Assembly (NCBI GenBank): GCA_038087875.1
Contig: CM075989.1
Coordinates: 18,850,001-18,914,000, forward strand
Length of the DNA stretch: 64,000 bases
Source: Malacoraja senta
Taxonomy: Eukaryota
Reading direction: 5' to 3'
Position 1 is the stretch's first letter. The number at the start of each line of letters is the position of its first letter. Below, piece after piece: positions 8,101-50,298 of the stretch. The position numbers were made by a program, and so were the translations under genes. The notes under the pieces were generated by a model. That model was not told the origin of the DNA, searched no databases, and saw only the letters and a list, made by a program, of their open reading frames with translations.

Positions 8101-11100
8101 TGCTATCCTACCCTCCTCCAGCACTTTTGTCTTTTTTTGTAAACCAGCATCTGCAGTTCCTAGTTTCTCCAAGAAAACATAACTCATCTTTACAAAAGAA
8201 CCAAGTGTACTGGAGTAACACAGTGAGTCAGCACGCAGGTCTGGAGGACATGGATAGGCGAGGTTTCAAGTCGGGACCATTCTTCAGACTAATTGTAGCA
8301 GTGAGGAGAAAGTTAGAAGAGAGGTGGGGGCAGCATTAAGCCTGGCAATTCTTGGGTGGATCCAGGCCAGAGGGGGGGGGGGGGGGGGGGGGTGGATCGG
8401 CAAATGGTTGGACAAAGGCCGGATACGATCAGCCATGTGAAAAGGGGATGAGGAGAGAAGAGGCATGAAATGTGAGATCAGAGGAAGAGATATAGGTGGA
8501 AGGAGACAGTGGGAGGAGGGAAGGGAGAGGAGGGTAGGATAGCAGGAGATATGCATGCGCATCCAGGTGGGACACAGGGAAGAGTGAGCGGGGGTTGGGG
8601 GTGGTTAAGCTCTCAATTAATTAAGATTTTTTAAAAATGGTGACAAATTATCTTTTTTATTATTTAAATTATGGAAAATCAGTTTGATTACAGCCAAAAA
8701 TCTGCAGCGATCTTTCCCCTTGTTAATATTTCCATACCATACAGACAGCACACTCAAGGAAAAGTGTATGAGATCAACTCTAAGACACAGGCTTTCCATA
8801 TCACCCTCGAAACGAAAATATCTGTTTACTCAATTGCTAGGATATAACTGCAACTGCTCGGACAGGAAGGCTCTGCAGAGGGTAGTGAGGGGAGCAGAGA
8901 AGATCATTGGCGTCTCCCTACCCTCGGTACAAGAACTGTTCCTGAGCCGCTGTCGGAAAAAAGCTCAGAGAATTGCCAAGGACAAACTGCACCCCCTCCA
9001 CATACACCTGGATCTCCTGCCATCAGGCAAGAGATATCGCAGCATCAAAGCCCGGACTACAAGACTGCTAAACAGCTTCCTGCCATATGCTGTGAGGCTG
9101 CTAAACAGCCACTCTGTACTCACAGTCACCTGATTCTGCGGCTTGGCACGGACACTATAATAACTGGCACTGGCCACTTCAATAACTGGCACTGGCCACT
9201 CAAATCAGCCACCCCGGACATGTTTATGATTGGTCTTACTGTATTTTAACGTTGTTTTTATCTATTTTAACTTTATACTGTTCCATCAGGGACTGGATTG
9301 TTTTTAGTGTTAATATGTGTGAAATGTTTTAAATTTCATGTGTGATGCCCTGGGAAACGTCTTTTCGTTTTGCACTGTACAACTGTTGCTTGCAAGATGA
9401 CAATAAAGGTTGAATTGAAATTGAATTGAAATTGAACTACTTAAGAGTCAAAAGTTAAAAATGTGTGATTGCAGAAATTAAAAGCAGCAACACAGTTTTG
9501 TGCTTAACTAATTGCAGATTATTAATTACTTCTTTAACCAAACTAAAAGTTTCTTTCATCAAATGGGCATTGATAAAGGTTGATGTGACACAGCATAACA
9601 AAACAACAATGTTAAATCATGTTGTTGAAACTAGTATATAATTTTTTTTATTTTATTTTAAAGAGTTTGACAGGAGAGATTCTCTCAGTTGTAGTGTCTG
9701 GACTAATGGGTCAGAGTGACAGGAAAAAGGGTTGGTCATTTAATGGGAGGTCAGATGAAATATGAGATGCAATGGAATTGTAATCCCTACCCACCAACTG
9801 GTCATGACACTCCAGAAGCACAAGCATCCAAGGTCAGGTCAATTTTCAAACTCCGCTGATAATTGAGATGAAGATAAAAGTGGGCGGGTATATGTCACCA
9901 GCAGAATGCCGGCACAGACCTTGGCATCCTCGTGTCATTAGCCGAGCTGGAAGCAAGTCGCACACCTGCCGGAGTCACCACCACTGCTGCATGCGGCTCA
10001 AAGACACCAACGATTGAAATGGAAACCTCTCACAGATTTCACTGTTGCCCTTGCTAAAGATAATGCGACCATTGGGATTGTTAATCCTGAGTGTTCGGAC
10101 AAAAGATGATCTTTCACCAAGAAGAAATTCAGCAGAATTCTTCGTAAGAACGTAAATAGAAGTAGGCGGTATAGTTCAAGTGTAACACAAAATGCTGGAG
10201 GGTCAGGCAGTTTCTGTGGAGGGAATGGACAGACAGTTTTTCAGATCGGGACCCTTCTTCAGACCATCTGAGGATGGGTCCCAACCAACTTTGCATTCAA
10301 GACCAATATACCATTTGCCCTCCAACTGGTTATATCCGCACACAAATTGTATAATTCATATCCAAGGGCCCCCAATTCCCATAGAACTCCAACATTAACT
10401 AGTCTCTAGTGCTAGAGTATCTCAGCGGGTCGGGCAACATCTCTGGACAAGATTGAGAGTTGACGGTTCAGGTTGGAACCTTTCTTCAGACTGATTGTGC
10501 TGGGGAAGGGGGGGGTGGGGGAGGAAGATGGGGGGGACAAAGTCCGATAAGGTAGATACAGGCGGGGGGGGGGGGGGGGATTGATAGGCAGATGGTTGGA
10601 CCAAGGCCAGTGGTGAAATTACAAAAGGTGTGAGACAAGGATAGAAGAGTGAAGCTGGAGGATCAGTCACAATCAGTCTGAATAAGGGTCCGGTCTCATA
10701 ATATCACTTATCCATGTTCTCCAGAGATGCTGCCTGACCCGCTGAGTTTCCCCAGTACTTTGTATCTGTTTTTCTTTTGTAAACCAGCATCTGCAGTTCC
10801 TCGTTTCTACATTGCTGGATGGGGGAGCAGTCTAGATTCAAGACAGGGATATCTGAGATCTGCATCTTGTTTTCCTCTTTGTAACATTCAATGGTCTGTC
10901 ACTGACTGCCTGAGAATACCCACATTCAGTTTGCAGCTCATCATTCTCTACTGAACAAATCAAAGACATTTTATAGCAAATGCTCCATAATTAGAATTGT
11001 GAGATAAGCTTATGCACGAGGAAAGGGCATTTTTAGGGATAATTATAATTTTGGTGCATTTTAGTTCTCGTACCTGATAAAGTCAGTTAAGAATAAAGCT

Positions 11101-14100
11101 AGTGTACATTTCTCTTCAGTGCATTGGCGGGTCTTGGGATGATAACTGACGTGCCCCGAGAGGGCTACCTGGGAACAAGGCTTCACCATTTGCAGACACA
11201 GCTGACATCTGACGGAGCCATGGCATTCTATGGTTTCAAAATGAAAAGTTGAACTCTCAACAGCCTGTCAAAGAGATTAAAATCAGAGTTTAGGAAATTA
11301 TAAATTTGCAGTGCTGTCACATCTAAACCAGCAAAATATGATCAGATAAGGCAGTGTGTAACGCGAGGCACTGGAATTCCCCATACCGCGAACTGGACAA
11401 ACACTTCCTGCAAGCTCAGAGCCAGGGGACTTCACACACGAAGCAGCCGAGGGGAACAACACATGTGTTTTATCTCTCAGCTGAGGAACAAAGTATTAAC
11501 TGATGGCCGACTTCCTCACATTTACCGCATCCAAATGCAAAAGTACAAACAAATGTACAAGTTCAAGAGGTTTTGCTGCAAGACGGCTAATCTGATCCTG
11601 ACACAATCTTGCACCAGAGATATCTCACGACATATTCAAGAAGTACTTTGATGCAATACCAGTTCAATGTGTTTGGGAAGATACAACTCTTGTGATTTGG
11701 CAGAAAGACTAAAGATAGATCAGAAAAAGTATTTTCATCCAAGGAGCATGGGGACGTGGAGCTTTTGTCTTGAAAGGGTGATGGAGACAAAAAAAGACTT
11801 AGTACATTTTAAACGCTCGGTGAGCACCTGAGGTGCCATAATGTGTTGGCTACAGTGAAGTTAAAATGCCTGCATTGTCTAATCAACATTTCTGCCTTAC
11901 ATGGACACAATGGGCCAAATGCCCACATATACAAACATACAGTTGGGGAGCTGTCTGTATAATGCCACCCCACCTTGGGCAAATAACCTGCTTTTGTTAC
12001 TTAATTTAATTAATTAATTTCTTTGATTTATTTTTAATCGATAACGTTACAGGTCCTCCTGGGGTTACTAACGGCAGACTTGGGGACAATGCAAATATAC
12101 GAGCGAGTGTTTGGCAGACCGGCGGGATGGATTTGCGGGCTGCTGTGGGGTTACAGGCATCTTCTGTTGGGTGGGGATGGGGCATTTCAACGTGCTTTTG
12201 ACTCCCCCCCCCCACCCCCTTTCCCCAGAGCCGCAACCATGGGGGGTTGGGTCGAGTCGATCAGAGCTGGGATTGTGAGCAGACTTGTTTATTCATTCAG
12301 ACTCTGTGAAGGCAGCTGGCGGCCGCTCTTCCCGCGTCTGCTCGCTTGCTCTCCCGTCACAGCTGTTTCTGTGATCCTCCCCCACAGTCTCCACTTACAA
12401 ACAGTTCAGGTTATTCATAAGTTCATACGTTCTAGGAGCAGAATTAGACCATTCGGCCCATCAAGTCTACTCTGCCATTCGATCATGGCTGATCTATCTC
12501 TCCCTCTTAACCCTATTCTCCTGCCTTCTCCCCATAGCAATCAAGAATCTGTCAATCTTCGCCTTAAAAATATCCATTGACTTATCCTCTACAGCCGTCT
12601 GTGGCAATGAATTCCACAGATTCACCGCCCTCTGGTGAAAGAAAGTTCGCCTCATCTCCTTTCTAAAGGTACATTTTATTCTGAGGCTGTGGCCTCTGGT
12701 CCTACTGTCCCTCTAGTGGAAACATCCTCTCAGCATCATCTCTATCCAGGCTATGAACAGTTCTCAGGAATGGAACTCTGTCTTAACCTTGGGAATGCCT
12801 GTATAGCTTACAAAAATACAACGTAGGAACTGCCCATAAAAAGTTACTACTACTTGGGCAAATACCCATTTGTATTACTAAATTCAAGATAATTACATCA
12901 ATCATATTTACCTTCAATTCTTCAGTCAATGTAAATTCGATGGTCACATTAGTAACTTCTATATTGCTGTGATTAGTAAAAAATAGGATTATTAACAGGC
13001 AGTCCTCTTTCCAGACTTTGCAGGAAGACAGAGTTACATTTTCAGTGGCGCAAACTTGCTCAAATCCTGAATGCAAAAACTCTGAGAATTCGACCGGCAA
13101 GCTTGGAGTCAAACTGGAGACGGGTTCATGGGCCACAGATGAAGAGTTGCAATTTGCAGGCTGTATAATGTCAAAATTCCCATCTGCAAATAGACCCGAA
13201 AAAGATTCCTTTGATGCTGTCGGCTTGGCTTCGATTAAGTTGTTACTCAGAGCCCAGTCTTGATCAGATACTTGGCCAAGTTCCACTCCAGAGCAAGTTG
13301 CTGCATTTGCCAGAGGTACTGCTTTACTTTCTTGGAAGGAAATACAGCTTTCTGGGACATTATCCATTAGATCTGGAATTTCACCAGGGTGCGAAGCAGT
13401 CGCCTTCTGTGCAGACATCATCTTGTTAGAGCTATTTTGTTTCTCAATATTCTTTGACTTTCTGCGAAATGTATGGGCAGTGCTCGGAGTTTTCCCCATC
13501 TGGAAAGATTACAGAAAATATATGAGTTGTATTTTTCAAATCTTTAAATTATTATGTGATGGTAGATAAAATCTGGTCTTGGCATCATGTTCGGCATAGA
13601 CATTATGGGCCGAAGAATCTGTTCTAGTGCTGTAATGTTCTATGTTCTGATCAACATTGGCCTTAAGAAAGAATTGCCTTCACAAGAATCTTTTAAACAA
13701 ATGTTGTGCATAAGCTAGCGTACTGTTCGATTCACCAATACCACATTGAGGACATTTGACTTTATCTAAGGAATTGATGTGCTACTAAGCTGAGACTACA
13801 TTCTGTGCTCTGTATCTTCCCCTTGGCTCCATCTATTGTACTTGAGTTTGAGATGAGTATATTTATATATGGTATATTTGATCTCTTTGGATACCATGCA
13901 AAACAAAGCTATTCTCTGTACCTTGGTACATGTAACAAAAATAAACCGAAACCTAGTCACATCACAAGATAATTCAATTCAGTACAATCTAAGCACTTCT
14001 AAAAGCTGGTTGTGTGCTTATCAGGATTTTAACAAATTGGTTACCGGTTTTGCTGCTCATTTTCTTACACCCTGCAGGTTGAATTGCCCAAGTTGAACTG

Positions 14101-16217: not shown

Positions 16218-19200
16218 TCGCGGTTTCATCACTGACGGTCGATCCAGCTCGAGGTTTTTCAGGCGAGTGCCCTCGAGCTTGAAGGGCGAAGACAGTCGCT
16301 GAAAAGCCGCGTTAGTGGGACAGGCCCTTAAGGAGGCAGAAGAGACACCAAAAATTGTCCATGTTGGTTTACAAAAAACGGACACAATCCTGGAGTAACT
16401 CAGCGGGTCAGGCAGCATCTGTGGAGAGCATGGATAGTTTGTGGACAACCTGTCCATGTTCTCCAGATATGCTGGCTGACCTGCTACATTACTCCAGCGT
16501 GTGTGTGTGTGTGTTTGTGGACAACCTGTCCATGTTCTCCAGATATGCTGGCTGACCTGCTACATTACTCCAGCGTGTGTGTGTGTGTTTGTGGACAACC
16601 TGTCCATGTTCTCCAGATATGCTGGCTGACCTGCTACATTACTCCAGCGTGTGTGTGTGTGTTTGTGGACAACCTGTCCATGTTCTCCAGATATGCTGGC
16701 TGACCTGCTACATTACTCCAGCGTGTGTGTGTGTGTTTGTGGACAACCTGTCCATGTTCTCCAGATATGCTGGCTGACCTGCTACATTACTCCAGCGTGT
16801 GTGTGTGTGTTTGTGGACAACCTGTCCATGTTCTCCAGATATGCTGGCTGACCTGCTACATTACTCCAGCACTTTCTCTTTTTTTTTTAAATTAAAAAAA
16901 AGAGGCAGAGATTGTTCTAATTAAAGCAGAGATCAAAACCAGATAGGTGAACAAAATCAAGAATACATAGAAAATATACGAGGAAAAGCCATTTTCATAC
17001 GAATTAACACACCAGACCTTTCAGCCTAGGCTTGTGCTGATCAAAAGAACCATGCAACCTAAATGAGTTTGTCTTGGCATCTTGCTTGGCACTGTTCCTG
17101 TGCTGTACTGTTCTATATTCTATGTTCCTAATAGATCCAACTGCCACATGTTGAGGTCTTGTTTTTCATGTGCTCATAAAAATGACTTAGGATTTTCTTT
17201 GATTTGATGCAGTGACTTAAGTGCGAGAAACCAGATGATAGATGAGGAGGAAAATAAAGATCGGGGCATTATAAAACAGGCCAAACTGTGGAATGCAGTG
17301 CAGGAAAGAATGTACACTCGCAGGCAAACTTCATGAGAAAATTACATAAATACTTGAGGGGAAAAAATACTGCATTGAGGGGAGAGGGCAATGGCAACTT
17401 TCTCAACCCTGCAGTTAGAAAAAAACATTCATATTTTCCGATTTACAGAATTCAGTCTATTGTGAAGTACATCTCTCTGCAAGAGTCACGGTATGTTCAG
17501 CACAAATCTGGATTGCTGATTGAGTTTGAAGAAGGGTCTCAACCCGTAACGACACCTACTCCTTTTCTCCAGAGATGCTGCCTGACCCACTGAGTTACTC
17601 CAGCACTTTGCATCTAATCTTCTGGATTGTTACTCGAGTGGGCTCACTGGTAGATGGTGTCCAGTTGCTATAGCAATAGAGCATGCAAACCTGTGCTTGC
17701 ACACATTACAAGCAGGTCTGTCAAGGGATGTCAAACAAAGATAAGATACAAAATGCTGGAGTATTTTAGCGGGTCAGGCAGCTTCTCTTGCAAAAAATGG
17801 ATAAGCGACATTTCAGGTCGGGTCCCTTCTTAAGGTGCCAAACAAAGGATATAAGGCTCAACCTGCCTGCCTCCTCTCTCCTGAAACATCAGCTTTACCC
17901 CCAATGTCTACTGTTCAAGATCAGGTTTTTTTTAAAGCATCTTTTCACTTCACATTTCAAACATGCTCCTGCCCTCGATCCCACCTGCTGCCCTCTGCTG
18001 GCCAAATACTGGCTCTTCACAACCAGCCACTGTGCCCCACCAAGACCTCCTTCCTGCCCCCAAGATCAGAAGTGGGGCAGAAAACAACTTCATATTGTAT
18101 AAATTCAGGGTGTTAACTCAGTATAATTTCTTTGGGTGCACCATAAAATTAACCAAAGATTAATTATTTTTTAACAAAGACTGTGCAACAGCTTTGCGAT
18201 TCATATTTGCTTACCATCCTCTTTGAAGTGAATCTATACACATATATTGATGCTAACTTACCAGATTTACAAGGTTATTGGATCCCAAACCAACAAATAG
18301 AGATGATGCCAAAAGTTGTCTCTCTTGTTCTTCTGCAGAAATACTGACGACACTTTCTGCAGCGGAGGGACTTTGAGCAGCCATTTCACCTTCGGAAACA
18401 GCACTTGTTTTGCTTGAGGTTTCTTCTTTGGATTCCTTGCTTCGAAGGTAGCCCTTCGTACCCCACACTTTCTTCACCCCTTCAAGTTTCAGACCCTCTG
18501 AACTGAACATAAGAGGTATACAATTCAACACAAAATCCAAATGTTGGCAAAAAAAAAATCCTTTGTTCATGCATACAAGAAATCACTACTGCACAGAGTT
18601 TTTAGAAAGCAGAATGTTAGTTGTCTGTCTCCAAACACACAAATAAAAGTATTTGTTTTACACTGTTATAAAGTCCCTAAACGTTGATGGGATTGGATCG
18701 TGTAAGATATTTGCCAAAACTAGAGGTCACAGATTCAAGGCACACTTATGAGAAGTAAGCATTTAATTCAGAACTGACGTTCCAAAGATGAGCAGGTTTG
18801 TAGGTTAATTGGCATTTATAAATTATCCCCGCTGTGTGGAAGAGAACTAGTGTATAGGTAATCGCTAGTCAGCGCTGAGTCGTCAATGGGCCGAGGGACC
18901 CGTTTGCACATGGATATTGCTGCGTGCACACTGACCACCTGGTATCTTTATGACCCTACCCATCAAATGCATTTAATTAACACTTTAATCAAATGCTACC
19001 CATTTAGTATTATTGACTTATTTGCAGGGGACTGCTGAGAAATTAATACATTTAATTAATACATCCTCAAGATGAATAAAGTACAGAGTGCTCCAAAGCA
19101 ATTCCTCTAACTTCCAAAGTCGGTGGCTACATCAATTCAGACTTCTTTCAAAGACATATTCAACCACACATGCTAACGTTCAACCCAAAATCAACTGGGT

Positions 19201-40200: not shown

Positions 40201-42180
40201 TTCAATGCTTCAATCAATCAATCAAAAAAAACAATTGCAGTGACCTCAGGACTGACTTGACTACAGAATATACCACGATAAAATGTGTGTGTGATTAAGT
40301 GACTTAAAGAAAAGCGAGCTCCAAACCATAGTTACAAAAGACAGCAAAATAAGGCAGCAAAAATAATCTATTCCTTCAGAGGAAATTAAGAATTACCGGA
40401 GATGTGGTGGGAGCAGAGACCTGTTCTTTTAACGTGGCCAATTCCTTCTTGATCAGTTTCTCCTCATCCTTAAACACAAATACCAACCATTTAGGAATGA
40501 CATTTTGAGTGACAGAACATTACTGAATTCACAATCTGAACAGTGAACCAGAAATTATCCAGAATAGATAAAGCATCAGTAAAACAGTTCCACAAAAGTG
40601 CGTGAAAATAATCTTCATAAGTCCGTAAGTTTTAGGAGCAGAGTTAGGCTTTTCGGCCCATCTACTCTGCCTTTCAATCATGGCTGATCTATCTTTCCCT
40701 TTCAACCCCATTTACCTGTCTTCTCCCCATAACCCCCAACACCCCTACTAATCAAGAATCTGTCAATCTCCGTCTTAAAAATATCAACTGACTTTGCTTT
40801 CACAGCCGTCTGTGACAAAGAAATTCATTCTCATCTTTCTAAAGGCAAGTCCTTTTATTCTGAGGCCGCAGCCTCTGGTCCTAGACTCTCCCACTAATGG
40901 AAACATCTTCACATCCACTCTCTCCAGGCCTTTCACTATTCGGTAAGTTTCAATGACGCGCCCCCTCATCCTTCTGAACTCCAGCGAGTTACAGGCTCCT
41001 TTATTTTTTAACTGTACACAGAAACATGGGATAGGTGGGCAGTTGTGTAAGTTATTCAAATCATCTTAGTCTTAGTGATGCTGAAGGGAAAATAAATCTA
41101 GAAAATTAATTTAAACTATCCTCTGACACAGGACACATTTAAATTTAAAGTGGAGCAAAAATTTCAAAACTACTCTTTATGCAAATAATCAGCAATCGTC
41201 TCACTAGGTAGATGCAAAATATTCAATACCATTGTTAAAGAAGTACAAGAGAGTTTTCCCCAGTGATCTAGCTCGCATTTATTTTTCAACCAAGATCACT
41301 GGAAAAACAAATAAAAGACAGTGCTGCGAATCCTCTCGCAACAAGCAGCGACCCAGGAGAGAGAAACAGAGTCAAAACTTAAAGTTGATGTCTATTTATC
41401 ACAACCTTTATTTAACCTGAAACACGACATAAGGGGAAAGGAGGGTCTGTTTAAGGATAGTGCAGGGGGCGTGAGGGTGAGAGATGGGCAGTGGGTGAGA
41501 ATTGGATGAGGGAGAATGAATGGGAGAAGCAAATATCTTTGGGGAGAAGGGTCAGAGGGAAAGGGGAGGGATTGTCAAATGTGGGTGGGCTTGGTCAGGG
41601 GAAGTTGTGGTGGGGATGGGTTGGTTGTGGAGGGGGCATTTTGGAGGGATTGTACAGAAGAGGATTTGGTGGAGAGTTGGTTGGGTGGAACGATAGTTCT
41701 GGGAAGGGTAGGGGTAGATTGGTCAGGGTTGGAAAAGTGAAGTGAGGGAGGGGAAAGGTCTGCACTCTGCCCCCGTCTAAACACATCCCATCCTTCCCTC
41801 CCTCCCTCCTCTCCCTCTATCCTCCTCTTCCCCTCCATCGCTCAATTCCTCCTTCTTTCTTGGTTTCTTGGTCCTCCAAAATATTCCAAATGGAATTTAA
41901 ACTGGAGGTGGTGGAGGGAGGACTTAAGCCAGAAGGATTTCCATCAATCCTCCCACTTCCCCTCCCTCTCTCCCCCTTCCTCCCCCAATCCTCCTCCCCC
42001 TCCTTTCCCTGCCTCCTCCCAAAGATCCTATAGCATCTTAGCTCCCACCTGTTTGGACGCCAGCTCGGTGAGGCCGCGGATGAAGCCGCCGAGCCGGGAC
42101 GCTGCCGTGATGCCGGCGGCGCCTTCCAGCGACAGGAGGCTGGGCAGCGCCGACAGCGTCTTCTCCATGACGTCGCTCAT
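4983..42180 (-). CDS. AP4E1: AP-4 complex subunit epsilon-1, complete gene (21 coding exons, 3426 nt, 1141 aa)
   Basis: Exons assembled manually give one open frame from MSDVMEKTLSALPSLL to LLYECQKVIRKM*. Recognisable AP4E1 peptides: LIYCEMLGYDASFGYIHAIKLAQQG, RRKAVLALYKF, VPAPWLQIQLLRIL, YAPSNEWFIQTMN, LKLEGVKKVWG. Splice phases are consistent throughout. Confidence 0.97.
6603..6630 (+). ncRNA. Minimal hammerhead ribozyme motif (Penelope-associated)
   Basis: CTGAAGA-A-GGGT[TTCG]GCCC-GAAA-CGTC: conserved core, UUCG-capped stem II, GUC cleavage triplet. Confidence 0.65.
7610..7770 (-). CDS. AP4E1: AP4E1 exon 20 (161 nt)
   Basis: RPLKLSTEEFGNLWLSLSNDVKQN...ELRLHTVAII; AG/GT. Confidence 0.93.
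8845..9436 (+). mobile_element. Rex1/Babar-like LINE 3' end
   Basis: DRKALQRVVRGAEKIIG...[24 protein letters not shown], then 3'UTR, AATAAA and (TTGAA)n tail. Confidence 0.8.
11074..11264 (-). CDS. AP4E1: AP4E1 exon 19 (191 nt)
   Basis: AVESSTFHFETIECHGSVRCQLCLQMVKPCSQVALSGHVSY...LFLTDFI; AG/GT. Confidence 0.9.
12912..13499 (-). CDS. AP4E1: AP4E1 exon 18 (588 nt; hinge and start of ear domain)
   Basis: MGKTPSTAHTFRRKSK...LSSCKVWKEDCLLIILFFTN...EELK; AG/GT. Confidence 0.92.
16013..16328. mobile_element. PIF/Harbinger-like MITE with internal (GT)n/(GTGAGT)n microsatellite
   Basis: 15-bp TIRs AGGGCCAGTCCCACT / AGTGGGACAGGCCCT (14/15 match) flanked by TAA on both sides. Confidence 0.72.
16438..16870 (+). 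repeat. 74-bp tandem repeat, about 6 units, built from a Penelope terminal-repeat segment + (GT)n
   Basis: Unit TTTGTGGACAACCTGTCCATGTTCTCCAGATATGCTGGCTGACCTGCTACATTACTCCAGC(GT)n; identical ORFs recur every 74 nt. Confidence 0.92.
18262..18502 (-). CDS. AP4E1: AP4E1 exon 17 (241 nt)
   Basis: SEGLKLEGVKKVWGTKGYL...QLLASSLFVGLGSNNLVNL; AG/GT. Confidence 0.93.
19324..19459 (-). CDS. AP4E1: AP4E1 exon 16 (136 nt)
   Basis: LNFEPYGLSFPTSPHISSVTGRQSPADLSINSEISYNSTESGLK; AG/GT. Confidence 0.92.
21015..21042 (+). ncRNA. Minimal hammerhead ribozyme motif
   Basis: CTGAAGA-A-GGGT[TTCG]GCCC-GAAA-CGTT (GUU triplet). Confidence 0.55.
22214..22241 (-). ncRNA. Minimal hammerhead ribozyme motif, AP4E1-sense, intron 15
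   Basis: Minus strand CTGAAGA-A-GGGTC[TC]GACCC-GAAA-CGTC. Confidence 0.62.
22411..22525 (-). CDS. AP4E1: AP4E1 exon 15 (115 nt)
   Basis: VDASLSFLDGFVADALGCGVAPYKPHHQRQEEKLAQEK; AG/GT. Confidence 0.95.
24114..24416 (-). CDS. AP4E1: AP4E1 exon 14 (303 nt)
   Basis: VLGEYSYLKTETKPEDVIQKL...LPLNASCDDIV; AG/GT. Confidence 0.95.
24595..24812 (+). mobile_element. LINE 3'UTR-type interspersed repeat (..AAAAGCTTTTCACTGTAC..GACAATAA tail family)
   Basis: Same sequence recurs inverted at about 54689-54845 and as fragments at about 13790-13950, 36790-36845, 38315-38360, 47595-47900. Confidence 0.6.
25826..25944 (-). CDS. AP4E1: AP4E1 exon 13 (119 nt)
   Basis: GFDDEVEDKQLRLYAVNSYLALLEKPKAQYPQKFLQVMSW; AG/GT. 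Confidence 0.95.
27514..27626 (-). CDS. AP4E1: AP4E1 exon 12 (113 nt)
   Basis: YAPSNEWFIQTMNTVFSVGGDMIQPEIPNNFLRLLAE; AC acceptor, GT donor. Confidence 0.93.
27627..29481 (-). other. U12-type (minor spliceosome) AT-AC intron 11 of AP4E1
   Basis: 5' end ATATCCTTT; branch-like CACCTTGAC with A at 27639, about 13 nt from the terminal AC. Joining restores AE-Q-YAPSNEW in frame. Confidence 0.92.
29482..29621 (-). CDS. AP4E1: AP4E1 exon 11 (140 nt)
   Basis: TLELLYRITNAQNVAVIVQKLLDYLRQSKDEYITINLVGKIAELAE; followed by U12-type donor ATATCCTTT. Confidence 0.93.
30202..30311 (-). CDS. AP4E1: AP4E1 exon 10 (110 nt)
   Basis: GLKALTYVIRQDLNLVLQHQLTIIECLDHSDPIIKRE; 91-nt upstream intron. Confidence 0.95.
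30403..30525 (-). CDS. AP4E1: AP4E1 exon 9 (123 nt)
   Basis: ILFECIQTIYTIHPKSELLEKAAKCTGKFILSPKNNLKYL; AG/GT. Confidence 0.95.
30748..31300 (-). mobile_element. Penelope-like element 3' end
   Basis: Minus strand HIPLG*L*PNGMNIQFSNFR (degenerate IFRLGSLQPxGMNIxFSNFR), purine/pyrimidine spacer, decayed hammerhead motif. Confidence 0.7.
32124..32197 (-). CDS. AP4E1: AP4E1 exon 8 (74 nt)
   Basis: TSELMYDVLDESLRRADLNHNITY; AG/GT. Confidence 0.95.
34579..34745 (-). CDS. AP4E1: AP4E1 exon 7 (167 nt)
   Basis: ENPDGHKDLTGSFVTILKQVVGGKLAVDFNYHSVPAPWLQIQLLRILRLLGKDDP; AG/GT. Confidence 0.95.
35851..36010 (-). CDS. AP4E1: AP4E1 exon 6 (160 nt)
   Basis: EIIRRKAVLALYKFYLIAPNQVQHIHDKFKKALCDKDPGVMAASLHIYLLLIK; AG/GT. 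Confidence 0.95.
37034..37155 (-). CDS. AP4E1: AP4E1 exon 5 (122 nt)
   Basis: DLQSTNLLEVCMALTVGSQLFPLDMIPAVLPLVEEKLQHSK; AG/GT. Confidence 0.95.
37800..38205 (-). mobile_element. CR1 LINE 3' fragment
   Basis: LEFRRMRGNLIETYK...[12 protein letters not shown]; 3'UTR with ggccgaatggcctactcc stem; similar fragments at about 12415-12750, 26210-26550, 34155-34480, 40615-40990, 45765-46000. Confidence 0.85.
38785..38858 (-). CDS. AP4E1: AP4E1 exon 4 (74 nt)
   Basis: GYLAVSLFLNEGHELLLLLVNTVLK; AG/GT. Confidence 0.95.
39665..39788 (-). CDS. AP4E1: AP4E1 exon 3 (124 nt)
   Basis: KQMWECLVRLIYCEMLGYDASFGYIHAIKLAQQGSLMEKRV; AG/GT. Confidence 0.95.
40397..40468 (-). CDS. AP4E1: AP4E1 exon 2 (72 nt)
   Basis: AG/GT flanks; DEEKLIKKELATLKEQVSAPTTSP. 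Confidence 0.93.
42049..42180 (-). CDS. AP4E1: AP4E1 exon 1 (132 nt)
   Basis: gccacgATG Kozak context; MSDVMEKTLSALPSLLSLEGAAGITAASRLGGFIRGLTELASKQ; donor GTGGGA. Confidence 0.93.
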
Positions 42181-42820
42181 CGTGGCGAGGCCTGGGCCTC
42201 GGCCTCGTCCCTGTAACTGCTCCTCCAGCCCCTCTCCCTCACCCTCACCCTCACCGCCGCTCCGCCCTGGGTCGCGCCATCTTGTTGTTGCCGCCGCCGC
42301 TGCTTTCGATCCAAAACTTTATTAACATCGCAGCGCTGCACCATCCCAGCCGCCAGGGGGCGCCGTGGCCAGAGGCTGCCCTGCACCATCCTGGCCGCCA
42401 GGGGGCGCGGCGACCAGGAAGGTGCAGGGCAGCCTCTGGCCACGGCAGCCCCCTATTAACATCGCAGCGCTGCACCATCCCAGCCGCCAGGGGGCGCCGT
42501 GGTCAGAGGCTGCCCTGCACCATCCCAGCCGATAGGGGGCGCCGTGGCCAGAGGCTGCCCTGCACCATCCTGGCCGCCAGGGGGCGCGCCGACCAGGATG
42601 GTGCAGGGCAGCCTCTGGCCACGGCAGCCCCCTATTGACATCGCAGCGCTGCACCATCCCAGCCGCCAGGGGGCGCCGTGGCCAGAGGCAGCGCTGCACC
42701 ATCCCAGCCGCTAGGGGGGCGCCGTGGCCAGAGGCAGCGCTACACCATCCCGGCCGCCAGGAGGCGCTGGGAACAGAGTGTGCTTTGCACCATTTCGGCC
42801 GCCGGGGGGCGCGGTGGGCT
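42050..42820. promoter_or_regulatory. CpG island / AP4E1 promoter region
   Basis: Very GC- and CpG-rich stretch over exon 1 and upstream; YY1-type AAGATGGCG on the minus strand at about 42275-42283. Confidence 0.8.
42322..42812 (+). repeat. GC-rich 45-bp-period minisatellite containing nine CTCF-consensus motifs and two inverted units
   Basis: CCGCCAGGGGGCGC at 42350, 42395, 42484, 42574, 42663; variants at 42529, 42708, 42754, 42799. Confidence 0.85.
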
Positions 42821-43659
42821 GGTCTTAGTTTCGTTCAGAGATACGACGCTGAAACAGGCCCTTCGGCCCACCGAGTCCGCACTGACCAGCGATCCCCGCA
42901 CACTAACACTATCCTACACACACACACACACACTAGGGACATGTTTTTACAATTATACCAAGCCAATTAACCTACAAACCTCTACGTCTTTGGAATGTGG
43001 GAGGAAACCCGAGCACCCGGAGAAAACCCACGCAGTTCACGGGGAGGTAGACAAAAGTGCTGGAGAAACTCAGCGGGTGCAGCAGCATCTATGGAGCGAA
43101 GGAGATAGGCAACGTTTCGGGCTAAAACCCTTCGTCAAACTCCCCACAGACAGCACCCGTAGTCAGGATCGAACCCGGGTCTCTGGCACTGTAAGGCAGC
43201 AACTCTACCGCTGTACCACCATGCCGCCCGGTCTTCATTAAACTAATCTCCTCTACCTGATGTGACCCATGCCCCTCCATTCCCTGCATATTATCCACAT
43301 GCTTATCTAAAAGCCTCTTAAACGCCACTATCACAGCTGCCTTCACCACCACCCCTTCCAGCAGGTTCCAGGCTCTCTGTAAAAAACCTGCCCCGCACAT
43401 CTCCATTGTGGTAGACATTTCCATCCTAGGAAAATTGTTTCTGGCTGACTATCGTATTTATGCCTCTCATAACTTTATATAATCCTATCAGAACTTCCCT
43501 CGACATATGGTGTTCCAGAGAAAACATTCCAAGTTTGCTCAATCCAAGCCAGCACTTTGTGTCTTATTCTGTAAACCAGCATCTACAGTTCCTTGTTTCT
43601 ACATGTCAGTCCAACCTTCCCATGTACCCAGTATATCCCAGTACTCACCAAAGCCTCCT

Positions 43660-44056
43660 TCCTCACCTCCATCCAGAGATACCAGCATCCTTTCCAGGTG
43701 AGACAGATGTTCACGTACACCTCTTCCAACCTCATTCAGTGCTCCTGATGTGGCCTCCTTTACATCGGCGAGACCAAGCACAGATTCGGCAACCGTTTCG
43801 CCAAACACGCTTGGCGAAACGGTTGCGCTTGGCCCATCAAGGTCTGCTGGATCTCCTAGTTGCTAACTATTTTAAGTCTCTTTCCCATTTCCATGCCAAC
43901 CTTGGATGGAAGGAATGGGTGATTTTTGAGGCTGAAGAAGGGTCTCGACCCGAGATGTCACCCATTCCTTCTATCCAGAGATGCTGCCTGTCCCGCTGAG
44001 TTACTCCAGCATTTTGTATCTATCTTTGGTGTAAACCAGCATCTGCAGTTCCTTCC
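43660..44056 (+). mobile_element. Penelope-like GIY-YIG endonuclease relic with downstream terminal repeat
   Basis: Degenerate FQVRQMFTYTSSNLI..CS*CGLLYIGETKHRFGNRFAKH. Confidence 0.72.
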
Positions 44057-47000
44057 TAAACATCCCTGTCAACATTTCTGTCCTGGGCTTCCAGACTATG
44101 TTAGCTACTTTTCCGAGGCAGCGAGATGTGTAGTTGGAGTCACTGGTGGTGAGTCTGGTCTGTGATGGACTGGGCAACACCTGCAACTCTAAGATTCTTG
44201 TGTTCTTTGGCAGACCTTGATATTCAATAGCATTACCAGGGCACAAAATGTTACTGGCCATCTGTCCATTTGATGAGGATTCATGTTATCTGTCCATTTG
44301 ATGAGGATTGTGAATTTAAATTAAACACGTTGGAAAGACCTCAGCAAAGATTTCCACTTCTGACCATATGATGGAAGGATATTCATTGATGAAGCGGCTG
44401 TAGATGGTGGTGTAGATGTCGGTGCCTCGGACACCAGCCTGAGGATCTCCTGATCTGAGGCTGAGATGACCGACTCCAACAACTACCACTATCTATCTTT
44501 GTATGAGGTATGGCTCCATCAACAGGACAGCTTGTTTAGTTTAGCTTAATTTATAGATACAGGGCGGAAACAGGCCCTTCGGCCCACTGCGGCCACACCA
44601 ACCAATGATCACCTATACATTAGTTCTACCCGACACACAAGGGCCAATTTACAGAAGCCAATTAACCTACAAATTTGAACTTTGGAATGTGGGAGCAAAC
44701 CGGAGAATCCGGAGAAAACCCATGCGGTCCCAAGGAGAACATATAAACTCCTTACCTGTAGTCAGGATCGAACCTGGGTCTCTGGTGATGTAAGGTAGCA
44801 ACTCTACCGCTGCGCCCCTGTGACATACTGATTCCCTCGTTATTTGTTGGGTATTTTAAGTCATTTAGCTCAACCTGATGTTCAAGGCACCTTATGCCAT
44901 CAAGTCATAGTCATCCAACATGAAAACAGGGCCTTCAGCCCAACTTATCCATAACGAGCAAGATACCCTCTCTGTCTACACTAGTCCCATTTGCATGTGT
45001 TTGGCCATATTCATCTAAACATTTCCTATTCATGTACCTGTATTTTAAATGTTGTTATCGTACCTGCCTCAACTACTTCCTCTAGCAGCTCATTCCATAT
45101 ACCCACCACCCTCTGTGTAAAAAAAGTTGCACCTCAGGTTCCTATTAAGTTGCCCCTCAGGTTCCTATGTGTGCATCAGTATGACAGGTGATGAGGGAAT
45201 ATCAACATTAAGGTGGTGTGTGACTTGGAATGGGTGTGGGTCGAGTTGGTATGTCCCATTTGCGTGATGCTTACAAAAACTATTTGTTTTTCTCTTTTCC
45301 CTCTTTCTCTTTCTTCTTCTTTTCTAGGGTCTATTTCTTAACTCTTTTTCTTTTGTTTTTAATTTTGTTCTTATAGGGTCTTCGTTATTTCTTGTTGTCA
45401 CGTTTTCTACACTTTCACCTTTTCCTTCACTTTCTTCTTTCTCTCAATCTCATCCTTTCCCTTTACTAGTGTAAAAAACAAACGGAGTACATTAATTGTA
45501 AGAAGATATATGTGACGAGTACTAATGTATGTGGTTGTAATGTAATGTACTTCTAATAAATAAAAAATAAAATAAAATAAAAATAAAAATAAAAAGGAAT
45601 GGGTGTGGGTCACTGGTATTCTGAAAGCTTCATACATTGACTCAAGAATCAGGTCATTTCCATAGCCTTTTTAAATTTCAGCAGACCATCTATGTTCCAG
45701 CTTCTTGCTTTACAATCTCTATTGAAGTCAACAAGACGCACTGGGGAACCTTCATGACATAAGTCAATAGACATTAGTGCAGTAGGCCATTCGGCCCTTC
45801 GAGCCAGCACCGCCATTCAATGTGATCATGGCTGATCATCCACAATCAGTACCTCGTTCCTGCCTTCTCCCCATATCCCCTGACTCCGCTATTTTTAAGA
45901 GCCCTATCTAGCTCTCTCTTGAAAGTATCCAGAGAACCGGCCACCACCGCCCTCTGAGGCAGAGAATTCCACAGACTCACAACTCTCTGTGTGAAAAAAA
46001 AAAAGTCCAAACACCACTTCTCTCCTCAATCTGGGCATTAGGTTCAGACAGAGTTTGAGGACATGTCGCAGTTGAGTTAGATCTGTTAGTGGATTGACGT
46101 CTCAAGTATAGGTCTTTGAACAGTCTTTGTCCTGGGGTTTTAAAAGACATTCGGATGGATACATGGATGGGAACGGTTTGGAAGAATTGCAAATGAGACC
46201 AGCTTAAATGGTGCACCTTGCTTGGCTTTGTCCAGTTAAGCTGAATATTCATACCACTGGGTTGTAAGCTGCCCAAGTGAAATATGAGGTGCTGTTCCTC
46301 CAATTTGCAAGTGGCCTGACCCTCATTCTAAAGAAGGGTCTCGAACCAAAACGTCACCTTTTCCTTTTCTCCAGAGATGCTGCCTGACCCGCTGAGTTTC
46401 TCCAGCAATTTGTGTCTATCTTTGGTGTAAACCAGCATCCGCAGTTCCTTCCTACACAGTTAAGCCATGGAGCCTGTTTCCATGCTATATGACTCTATGA
46501 CTCCATTAAAGTGGAAATACAGACAATTATAATTTCCTTAACTGAACGATACAAGCTGTGGTTGAAATGTTTGCAGCAATAATATTTTACTTCTTATAAT
46601 AATACTTAAAGAGTGGGCGGATTCCATCTTCAATAATATTTCAACCTGTGAGATATGTTATATATGAGTTCCAAATTCCTTATCACTATTTTAATTGAAA
46701 AAATATATATATTTTCTTATCTCTATTTCCAACTTGAGCTTCTCTTAGCCCGAGTCATTGGAAATTGGTTTAAAACCTCTTATTATCTTCATGTGTTTGT
46801 CTGCATCATAACCAATGGCTCTGACATTCACACTACAGAGGAAAGCACTCTGGATGATTTCATCTGGTACATAGAGTTCTCAAAATGTTCTGCTTTGGTG
46901 TATAATCAATAGATCCATATAAACTTTGTGACAGATTGCATTGGACTATAAGTATGATTCAATTTCCAATGGACGTCTGAAACATGTATTTATTCCTTCC

Positions 47001-48162
47001 TTCAGCTTATGAAAGTTTTGTCGCATAGTTATAATTTTAGTTTTTAGAGCACCCATTATGTTGCTTTCCTTACGAAAATAAAGTGCCGTATTTTGAAGCA
47101 ATTATTGAGTGTGTTTTTTTTGTTCAGAATACTTTTTAAAAAGTAAGTGTTTCCATGGTAAAATACCATTTATTGCGTTGAATGTGTTGATGACATTTCT
47201 GCCAATCTACTGAGTCAAAGTAAAGCAAACTGATATATAGATGCCAAATCTACAAATGCTGACTGATTCTAACCACGTTATATCCTCGATCTCACTGTCC
47301 CACACAACAACTTTTTGCTTTATATCAGTTCCTTCTTTTGTATCAGTCCCTTTTTGCTTTAAATCAGTCCATTTAATCGGTTCTACCCTTGTCACACATC
47401 CAGCCCATCTAACAACCGTCTAACAAGGCTTTCCCATGTTATTCTCTGCCCTGGGTCTCTTCCCTAACTCTATATTTTCTTTAAAGGTGACTATCACTAA
47501 TCGCAACCTCCCCTGATATTCTGAAACATTAACTCTCTTTCCTTCTTCACAGATGCTGCCTGACCAACTGCGTGTTTCCTGGTTCTATTTCATATTGTAC
47601 TTGAGTTTGAACTATTTGTATCTACTGTATATCTGATCTATTTGGATAGCATTTAAAACAAAGCTTTTGCCGCAGAATGCTGTGGATGCCAAGGGATATT
47701 TTTATGGTATAGGTAGATAGATTCTTTATTTGTATGGGTGTCAGGGGTTGTGGGGAGTAGGCAGGAGAATTGGGTTGAGGGGGAGAGTTAGATCAGCCAT
47801 GATTGAATGGCGGAGTAGACTTGATGGGCTGAATGGCCTAATTCTGCTCCTATCACTTATGAACATTTCACTGTACCTCAGTACACATGACAATATTAAA
47901 CCTAACCCTATATTTGTAGTAGTATTTCGATTTTCAGCAAACATCACACGTGACTTTAAAATAAACATTTTTTGAACTGAAGCCAAATAAACACTATTGT
48001 GAGCACACAGTCTAATATGTATATGACAACAGTTTTCCAATGAAACCCATAATGAGGAATGTCACCGTGTTTTGATTCCAGTATGAAGAACTTGCCTTCA
48101 GTGGAATCATGTCAGCCCTGTTTTTTATCCATTTATTATGCTACGCCTTTCCCAAAGTCAAC

Positions 48163-49140
48163 ACCTTCACGTTCCTGGGCGTGCATATCTGTGAAGATCT
48201 ATCCTGGGCCCAGCACATCGATGCAATCATGAAGAAAGTTATCAACGCCTTTATTTCCTTGGAAGACTAAAAGGAGATGTGGTAGGTTGTCAAATACACT
48301 CTTGAATGTCTACAGTGGAGAGCATACTGACTGGTTGCAGCACAGCCTGATTCAGCAACTCCAACGCCCATATATGTAGTAGACTACAGAGAGCGGTAGA
48401 CACTGCCTGGTTCATCACTGGGATCTACAGGAAGCGCTGCCTCAAAAAGGCAGGTAATATCATCAAAGACCCTATTTCATTTCACTACCACTATCGGGAA
48501 GAAGGTACTGGAGCCTGAAAACTGTGACCACCAGATTCAGGAACAGCTTCTTCCCTGCAACCATCAGGCTCTTAAACACTGCACAACAGTGTGGCACAGT
48601 GGCGTATTGGTAGAGCAACTGCCTATTGCAGCGCCAGAGACCCGGGTTCAATCCTGACTACGGGTGCTCTCTGTACAGAGTTTGTACGTTCTCCCCGTGA
48701 CCTGCGTGGGTTTTCTCTGAAATCTTCGGTTTCCTCCCTCACTCCAAAAACGAACATGTTTTTAGGTTAATTGGCTTGGTGTAAATGTAAAAATGTATCC
48801 CCAGTGTGAGTAGGGTAGTGTTAATGTGCGGGGATGACTGGTCGATGCGGACTTGGTGGGCCGAAGGGCCTCTCTCCGCACTGTATCTCTAAACTAAACT
48901 AAACTAAACATTAACTGTATCAACTAAGATCTTCTATAGACTGTGCCTTTGATTGCACAACAGATTGGTTTTGCATAACCATGGCTACCTCGTGGCACGG
49001 TCATTAATTTATTGTATTAATGATTATTATATATTTCCATCTGTGTGTTATTTGCGTCACAGACCTGATAAGCTGCAGCAAATACGTATCTCATTGTTTC
49101 AGTGCCCGTACATATGACAATTAAATACTCTTCACTCTTG
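48163..49140 (+). mobile_element. Older Rex1/Babar-like fragment interrupted by a SINE (about 48592-48909)
   Basis: Degenerate FTFLGVHI..DLSW..HI, RLYFL, LPSGRRY..LKT.TTRFRNSFFP motifs. Confidence 0.7.
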
Positions 49141-49736
49141 ACAGATGCCTAACAAGAGCTTCTTCGCAGCTCAGGGCATCAATCATCAAATGTATTAAGC
49201 ATTCAATGTTTGACGGCTCGCTGTCGGGAGAGTGTTTGCTGATGTGATTTGTTACACACGGGGTCTTTTGTCCAGCATTCAATGTGTTTGCAACGTGGAA
49301 CTATAATGTGAGGTGCCGAGCGCAGGCAGTCAATGAAATGGAAACTCGTTTACACACAGCCCACAGCCAACAAATGGACCGAATATCCTTCATCACCGTT
49401 ACTTTCATGCATGTCTTGCATTCATTTGTTCCATATCTCCGTACCACATCTAAATCTCTCGTTTCCCGTTCCCCTGATATCAGTCTGAAGAAGGGTCTCG
49501 ACCTGAAACGTCGCCTATTCCTTTTCTCCAGAGATGCTGCCTGACCCGTTGATTGTTTCCGTTATCATCGTTACTTTTTTGCATATCTTTCATTCATTGT
49601 TCTTTATCTCTCCACATCACCGTCTATGTCTCTCGCTTCCCTCATCCCTAACCTGTCTGAAGAAGGGTCTCGACCCAAAACGTCACCCATTTCTTTTCTC
49701 CAGAGATGCTGTCGAGTTACTCCAGCTTTTTTTGAC

Positions 49737-50170
49737 TCGCTTGTACTGGCTAGAATTTAGAAGATTGAGGGGGGATCTTATAGAACTTACACAATTCTTA
49801 AGGGTTTTGTAAGGCATTCTTAAGGCTAGATGCAGGAAGATTGTTCCCGATGTTGGGGAAGTCCAGAACAAGGGGTCACAGTTTAAGAAAAAGGGGGAAG
49901 TCTTTTAGGACCGAGATGAGAAAAAAAAATTCACACAGAGAGTGGTGAATCTGTGGAACTCTCTGCCACAGAAAGTAGTTGAGGCCAGTTCATTGGCTAT
50001 ATTTAAGAGGGAGTTAGATGTGGCCCTTGTGGCTAAAGGGATCAGGGGGTATGGAGAGAGGGCAGGTACAGGATACTGAGTTGGATGATCAGCCATGATC
50101 ATATTGAATGGCGGTGCAGGCTCGAAGGGCCGAATGGCCTACTCCTGCACCTATTTTCTATGATTCTATG
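49737..50170 (+). mobile_element. CR1 LINE 3' fragment (near-identical to the 3' end of the 52077-54064 copy)
   Basis: [16 protein letters not shown] coding end, CR1 3'UTR and TTCTATG tail. Confidence 0.88.
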
Positions 50171-50298
50171 TTTTTTGTGTCTATCTTCGGTTTGAACCAG
50201 CATCTGCTGTTCCTTCCACACAGATGAAAACGCCTGATGTATTTCTATCGCCCAGCTGAGCTGAGGGTTTGTGTGTGTGTGTGTGTGTGTGTGTGGAG

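Follow-up and report, generated by a model that had tools for sequence, protein, structure and literature searches.

A skate minisatellite that multiplies a CTCF-type core behind the AP4E1 promoter, possibly as a one-sided promoter guard

Directly behind the CpG-island promoter of AP4E1, a skate minisatellite carries nine copies of a CTCF-type core, all pointing away from the gene. Judged from its sequence, the array may bind CTCF on several units. The best explanation, which we put forward tentatively and at not quite even likelihood, is that it would serve as a one-sided local guard against antisense transcription and as a cohesin anchor, without setting up a strong TAD boundary. The array is real, more intricate than first described and common to skates.

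The window, by which we mean the whole stretch of 64 kb that was analyzed, contains AP4E1 on the reverse strand and SCG3 on the forward strand, as an earlier note on this DNA had called them. The two genes stand head to head (42180-50450), and the array sits between a CpG island (CpG o/e 0.97, compared with 0.62 in the array) and a dispersed repeat. The features around it are:

42049..42180, reverse strand: first coding exon of AP4E1; the gene extends to about 4986 in 21 tblastn pieces (PF01602, PF14807)
42040..42320, no strand assigned: AP4E1 CpG-island promoter and 5' leader (GC 0.68, CpG o/e 0.97)
42830..43230, no strand assigned: dispersed repeat adjoining the far end of the array, presumably SINE-like (150 of 386 16-mers recur elsewhere in the window)
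50398..50418, reverse strand: RE1/NRSE-like site in the SCG3 5' leader (4 mismatches in 19 to the consensus)
50450..50547, forward strand: likely first coding exon of SCG3, its frame resembling a signal peptide; the exon itself has no Pfam match, and PF15467 is matched by later exons

Between the AP4E1 start codon and the first core there are 170 bp; the last core and the likely start codon of SCG3 (50450) are 7.6 kb apart. Over the long AP4E1 exon, identity is 94% to a cluster with the named members Amblyraja, Leucoraja and Rhinoraja, and at most 74% to other rays and sharks, which identifies the window as skate DNA. In the human genome the gene orders are SCG3-LYSMD2-TMOD2-TMOD3 and AP4E1-TNFAIP8L3, with AP4E1 adjoining SPPL2A and SCG3 adjoining DMXL2. 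Given the head-to-head arrangement found here, the AP4E1/SCG3 junction would therefore be one end of an inversion, and the other end would be close to the boundary that is called in skate at the Dmxl2 promoter. This junction was absent from the synteny literature examined. SCG3 is, we take it, under REST control. The RE1-like site lies 32 bp before the SCG3 start codon and is the best match in the 64 kb (17 of 3000 local nulls); its sequence suggests that SCG3 is controlled by REST in a cartilaginous fish. Scg3 was not found as a REST target in the available parts of PMC4371837 and its supplement.

The array and its cores are arranged as follows:

42320..42817, forward strand: minisatellite with a 45-bp unit, 9 forward and 2 inverted units and 3 copies of an AT-rich leader (GC 0.73, CpG o/e 0.62)
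42350..42363, forward strand: core 1, exact
42395..42408, forward strand: core 2, exact; its 3' half forms the loop of hairpin 1
42484..42497, forward strand: core 3, exact
42529..42542, forward strand: core 4, variant with 1 mismatch
42574..42587, forward strand: core 5, exact; within hairpin 2
42663..42676, forward strand: core 6, exact
42708..42722, forward strand: core 7, with one extra G; unmatched at 1 mismatch
42754..42767, forward strand: core 8, variant with 1 mismatch
42799..42812, forward strand: core 9, variant with 1 mismatch; its spacer is the most diverged of all

The nine starts are those that the earlier note had given, and its spacings (45, 89, 45, 45, 89, 45, 46 and 45) are exact. 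Five of the nine cores read CCGCCAGGGGGCGC and all nine lie on the forward strand, also as claimed. Neither the array nor its surroundings gave a CTCF core on the reverse strand; three further matches in the window lie more than 22 kb away. Measured against the CTCF core consensus (ZF3-7), taken as an IUPAC pattern and not as a weight matrix, five cores are exact and three have one mismatch, so that eight of nine match with at most one; the ninth, at 42708, has an extra G. The five exact cores share 12 of 14 letters, compared by eye, with the binding probe in 10.1101/2023.12.05.569896. The window as a whole holds 11 consensus matches against 0.83 expected, the array copies among them not being independent. 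Since these copies share one origin, the fair figure comes from shuffling a single unit: an exact core appeared in 480 of 200,000 dinucleotide shuffles. An upstream motif (ZF9-11) with a linker of 5-6 bp marks many insulator sites (PMC12885311, available text). With a linker of 6, this motif reaches 6/10 in three units of the array and 5/10 in six, and a score of 6 was attained by 6173 of 100,000 shuffles, making it a weak match at best.

The nine sites lie within 463 bp. Tandem Repeats Finder returned periods of 45, 134 and 179, indicating a higher-order repeat of 134/179 bp whose copies are identical at 54-55 of 56 and at 88 of 90 positions. Among the 13-mers of the array, a single one recurs elsewhere in the window. 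An RE1 array was considered and rejected, there being no RE1 match at 3 mismatches window-wide and none at 5 inside the array. The four-run pattern of a G-quadruplex is absent on either strand, and the reading frames across the array are repeat read-throughs, which speaks against a coding role. The AT-rich leader contains a TATA-like hexamer (42320, 42454 and 42633, forward strand) 30 bp before cores 1, 3 and 6; an antisense start from these hexamers would coincide with the core.

Both 89-bp gaps hold an inverted 44-bp unit, which the earlier note had overlooked:

42409..42452, reverse strand: inverted unit 1, broken inside the core; its pairing partner is 42356-42399 (91% complementary; predicted fold -58.4 kcal/mol)
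42590..42631, reverse strand: inverted unit 2; pairs with 42535-42576 (93% complementary; predicted fold -61.0 kcal/mol)

Each inverted unit is complementary to the unit directly before it, and behind it the AT-rich leader, first seen at the start of the array, occurs again. The predicted single-strand fold of the whole array has a z of -11.1. Both ends of an inverted unit fall inside the core, the start in its 5' half and the end in its 3' half, and thus no reverse site is formed. Contigs from relatives contain a forward spacer variant that opens with the letters found after cores 2 and 5; these first letters pair with the letters preceding the core, giving a small imperfect palindrome, and the junction letters fit fold-back copying. 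We infer the following origin. Slippage would have produced the 45-bp units; the short imperfect palindrome around the core of one unit variant would then have primed a fold-back copy of the preceding unit, with a 3-bp TAT match bringing synthesis back to the AT-rich leader; the resulting block would have been duplicated afterwards. Because such a fold-back begins inside the core, the inverted copies would lack a whole site and the polarity of the array would be kept. Selection against reverse sites is not needed, as the geometry of fold-back yields the same outcome. The core-splitting fold-back units are the one unusual trait of the array.

We compared the array with sequencing runs of related organisms. 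Part of the stretch is contained in 22 of the 24 listed runs, and at least half of it in one (X1, 0.58 of 74 words); no RNA data set is listed among those containing it. Contigs of four runs were compared over exon 1 and the first third of the array (42040-42460). X1 has no contig there, and the informative runs were X2, X4 and X8, from organisms B, C and D. All three yielded one contig spanning exon 1, the leader and the first core, with 5-6 differing letters and two small gaps, and further unit contigs besides. One X4 contig steps back one unit; one X8 contig (organism D) does likewise and ends in the right-hand flank seen in the window. The same exon, first core and units in three relatives mean that the array predates the split of these organisms, and they rule out an assembly artefact. 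Unit make-up varies among these organisms, with variant-spacer unit contigs in B, C and D. Core 1 has no listed differing letter in X2, X4 or X8, save that one X4 contig has an extra G ending a G run; a base is inserted in a core in one X4 and one X8 contig. Unit contigs are 3 to 12 times as deep as the single-copy contig, a figure that is not a copy number. Among the contigs listed for B, C and D over 42040-42460, none covers an inverted unit or contains a strand-changing joint, which hints at a recent origin of the inverted units.

The earlier note had further stated that the motif persists while the spacer changes. This statement rests on the last unit, in which the spacer differs at 10 of 31 positions and the core at 1 of 14 (Fisher p=0.07). 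Over the six full-length units the core, which makes up 14 of the 45 unit columns, takes 5 of 21 changes (p=0.32). In the relatives, listed differences fall in 0 of 28 core columns and 4 of 31 spacer columns (p=0.07; contig ends excluded). Neither the test in the array (p=0.32) nor that in relatives (p=0.07) gives significant evidence of selection on the core. The core CpGs are intact in 18 of 18 cases, and TG or CA variants occur in two CpG columns of the spacer; the numbers are small. On the sequences compared, the evidence leans to protection of the core without establishing it. Methylation could weaken CTCF binding, and both motif CpGs are present here (PMC6868874, available text).

If the array stays unmethylated, CTCF on several of its units would keep antisense transcription from running out of the AP4E1 promoter towards SCG3, and cohesin approaching from the SCG3 side would stall there; the array would perhaps also keep methylation of the flanking repeat off the CpG island. 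In favor of this reading are the rarity of an exact core in unit shuffles, the position of the first core beside the CpG island and the intact core CpGs. Mouse promoters provide the precedent. At housekeeping genes there, CTCF acts directly, and independently of looping, to repress upstream antisense transcription (10.1101/2021.10.30.465508, available text). A forward site just upstream of the start leads to activation, and a site further upstream blocks antisense transcription in either orientation, according to the relevant text of PMC12695661, in which a definition of 'forward' is absent and which we read in the usual JASPAR direction. As the cores are reverse to AP4E1, the orientation-free antisense block makes the guard the best reading. 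Against it, the antisense-blocking precedent consists of single sites at most ~100 bp from the start and leaves nine copies unexplained, the core is not significantly better kept than the spacer, and cores with inserted bases occur in the window (42708), in X4 and in X8.

Three alternatives concern what the cores do locally. Neutral amplification comes close behind the promoter guard, although we consider it unlikely on balance: one ordinary promoter CTCF site matters, or once did, and the slippage or fold-back copies of an unstable GC-rich unit add nothing. The lack of significant core conservation, the tolerance of damaged cores and the 96-98% identity of the higher-order copies, which makes them recent, would all follow, and the palindrome of the unit accounts for the structure without selection. 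The contigs of B, C and D, which can show presence only, do not cover the inverted units. However, four or more organism labels have tandem units, which in D adjoin the same right-hand flank, the most diverged unit retains its core (p=0.07) and no core CpG has decayed. A very improbable alternative is that CTCF does not bind at all, the array being a GC-rich minisatellite that resembles the CTCF core by chance, or being methylated. CpG o/e is indeed lower in the array (0.62) than in the promoter (0.97), the spacer CpG variants resemble deamination products, and GC-rich repeats are so numerous in a genome that a 0.24% event is expected somewhere; yet the consensus is exact, the array abuts an open CpG island and its core CpGs are intact. 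Least probable of the readings weighed is a direct activator of AP4E1, like the forward promoter CTCF sites of housekeeping genes. The distance would fit, such sites lying at a median of about 79 bp upstream (PMC12695661, available text), and the AP4E1 promoter is a CpG island. The orientation does not, because the cores are on the forward strand and AP4E1 is on the reverse strand, so that all are reverse to the gene. Loss of CTCF down-regulated 2% of reverse-only promoters compared with 29% of those with forward motifs or none (same source and text).

The remaining alternative, proposed in the earlier note, is a strong insulator or domain boundary parting housekeeping AP4E1 from neuroendocrine SCG3. 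Of this claim, it is supported that a CTCF-type core next to the AP4E1 promoter was amplified as a minisatellite, and the cores do face the SCG3 side. That is the favored side for enhancer blocking, a CTCF site blocking enhancers best from the side it faces (PMC12885311, available text), and predicted insulation rises with the number of strong sites (10.1101/2024.08.01.606065). We nevertheless judge the strong boundary improbable. The available parts of PMC10115646, whose Hi-C is from little-skate fins only, with 25-kb bins and boundaries above a score cut-off of 1, describe a 1.75-Mb TAD on Leri_33C (4,687,500-6,437,500) that holds the promoter bins of Leo1 (5.99-6.00 Mb), Tmod3 (6.00-6.01 Mb), Tnfaip8l3 (6.22-6.23 Mb) and Dmxl2 (6.41-6.42 Mb). 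By the human gene order, the AP4E1/SCG3 junction would fall at 6.01-6.22 Mb, more than 200 kb from the closest boundary called in the fins. No insulation minimum was found for it: no fin boundary is called from 4.6875 to 6.4375 Mb of Leri_33C, with the junction placed by gene order and in another species. Among the HiChIP rows listed in PMC10115646 (in part), all of low count, one spans the junction, from Tmod3 to 6.24-6.25 Mb, and two end inside the interval (5.81 Mb to 6.17-6.18 Mb, and 7.18 Mb to 6.08-6.09 Mb). The loop from 5.81 Mb could end at the array itself, in favor of a boundary, and weak or neural boundaries would escape fin-only Hi-C at this bin size and cut-off. Among the rows listed in the same supplement (in part), Ap4e1 is not named and Scg3 appears solely in the expression table. 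At skate boundaries the CTCF motifs tend to point inwards (PMC10115646, in part), and thus skates follow the orientation code; the direction of the cores would be into the TAD, consistent with an inner loop anchor. A TAD-boundary cluster with divergent sites is not what the array contains, all of its cores having a single orientation. Further against a boundary are the upstream motif of at most 6/10, the report that tandem arrays outside boundaries do not insulate (as cited in the accessible text of 10.1101/2024.08.01.606065), and the RE1-like site (17 of 3000 nulls), which could silence SCG3 by itself, so that an insulator is less needed.

CTCF motifs in tandem repeats are already well described, and the promoter-side kind is known from rodents. 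DXPas34 at the rodent Tsix promoter consists of CpG-rich monomers of 30-70 bp, each with a CTCF site, next to a promoter; it is lineage-limited, and monomer type and number vary among close species (PMC3149622, available text). The skate array likewise has a short CpG-rich monomer with one motif beside a promoter, and is shared within a lineage with monomer variation, as seen for its first third. The likeness is anatomical, with no homology claimed: the skate array is at an autosomal housekeeping promoter with no X-inactivation context, and has inverted core-splitting units, which the available text of PMC3149622 does not mention for DXPas34. Function is demonstrated for DXPas34 and proposed for the skate array. 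With the antisense-blocking promoter sites, which act in either orientation, it shares a position upstream of a housekeeping CpG-island promoter; those, however, are single sites in mouse and human, compared with nine reaching to about 500 bp upstream in the skate (10.1101/2021.10.30.465508; PMC12695661, both in part). The DXZ4 and ICCE macrosatellites and the gamma satellites also multiply CTCF motifs in tandem, but with units of 215 bp to 5 kb, in arrays of kilobases or more that do not lie behind promoters, and ICCE has sites on both strands, unlike the one-strand skate array (available text of PMC6125249 and 10.64898/2026.07.18.739380). Clustered CTCF TAD boundaries have several closely spaced consensus sites as well; the skate array differs in having no divergent pair, and no little-skate fin boundary is called at the inferred place (10.1101/2024.08.01.606065; PMC10115646, both in part). 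A literature search over titles and abstract openings, in which subscription journals are under-represented, found no publication on the array locus at AP4E1. From its letters, the array is plausible as a regulatory repeat of a described kind, not as a new system.

If bound, the array would be a natural dense cluster in close kin of the little skate, for which Hi-C, ATAC and HiChIP exist, and would allow a test of whether a boundary can arise from the number of sites alone, for which the published fin map points to a negative answer. The array also offers a concrete route for a transposon-free origin of co-oriented CTCF clusters. A quite improbable extension is that CTCF minisatellites have arisen again and again behind the housekeeping promoters of cartilaginous fishes and that the core drives its own amplification. 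Fold-backs primed by the core palindrome would always break the core, so arrays would grow and rearrange with one polarity; supercoiling at the promoter could also make the 44-bp stems extrude, disabling two sites. Were this true, promoter directionality and one-sided loop anchoring would be tuned by unit number, which would evolve fast.

Several other features of the window were recorded. In the AP4E1 leader, a word at 42251-42283 (reverse strand), which we take to be YY1-like, contains an ATG that opens an out-of-frame upstream ORF of 9 codons, and relatives have 12-bp and 3-bp gaps near it. Single CTCF-like matches lie within AP4E1 at 12625 (reverse), 17988 (reverse) and 19957 (forward), both reverse ones pointing away from the array. 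An AP4E1 intron contains a 74-bp minisatellite (16437-16870; 5.8 copies, 99% matches), and the first SCG3 intron a LINE-type reverse transcriptase in two frames (52333-54106, reverse strand; PF00078). A repeat fragment with a 22-bp tandem unit is shared, in opposite orientations, between 8968-9245 and 57272-57583.
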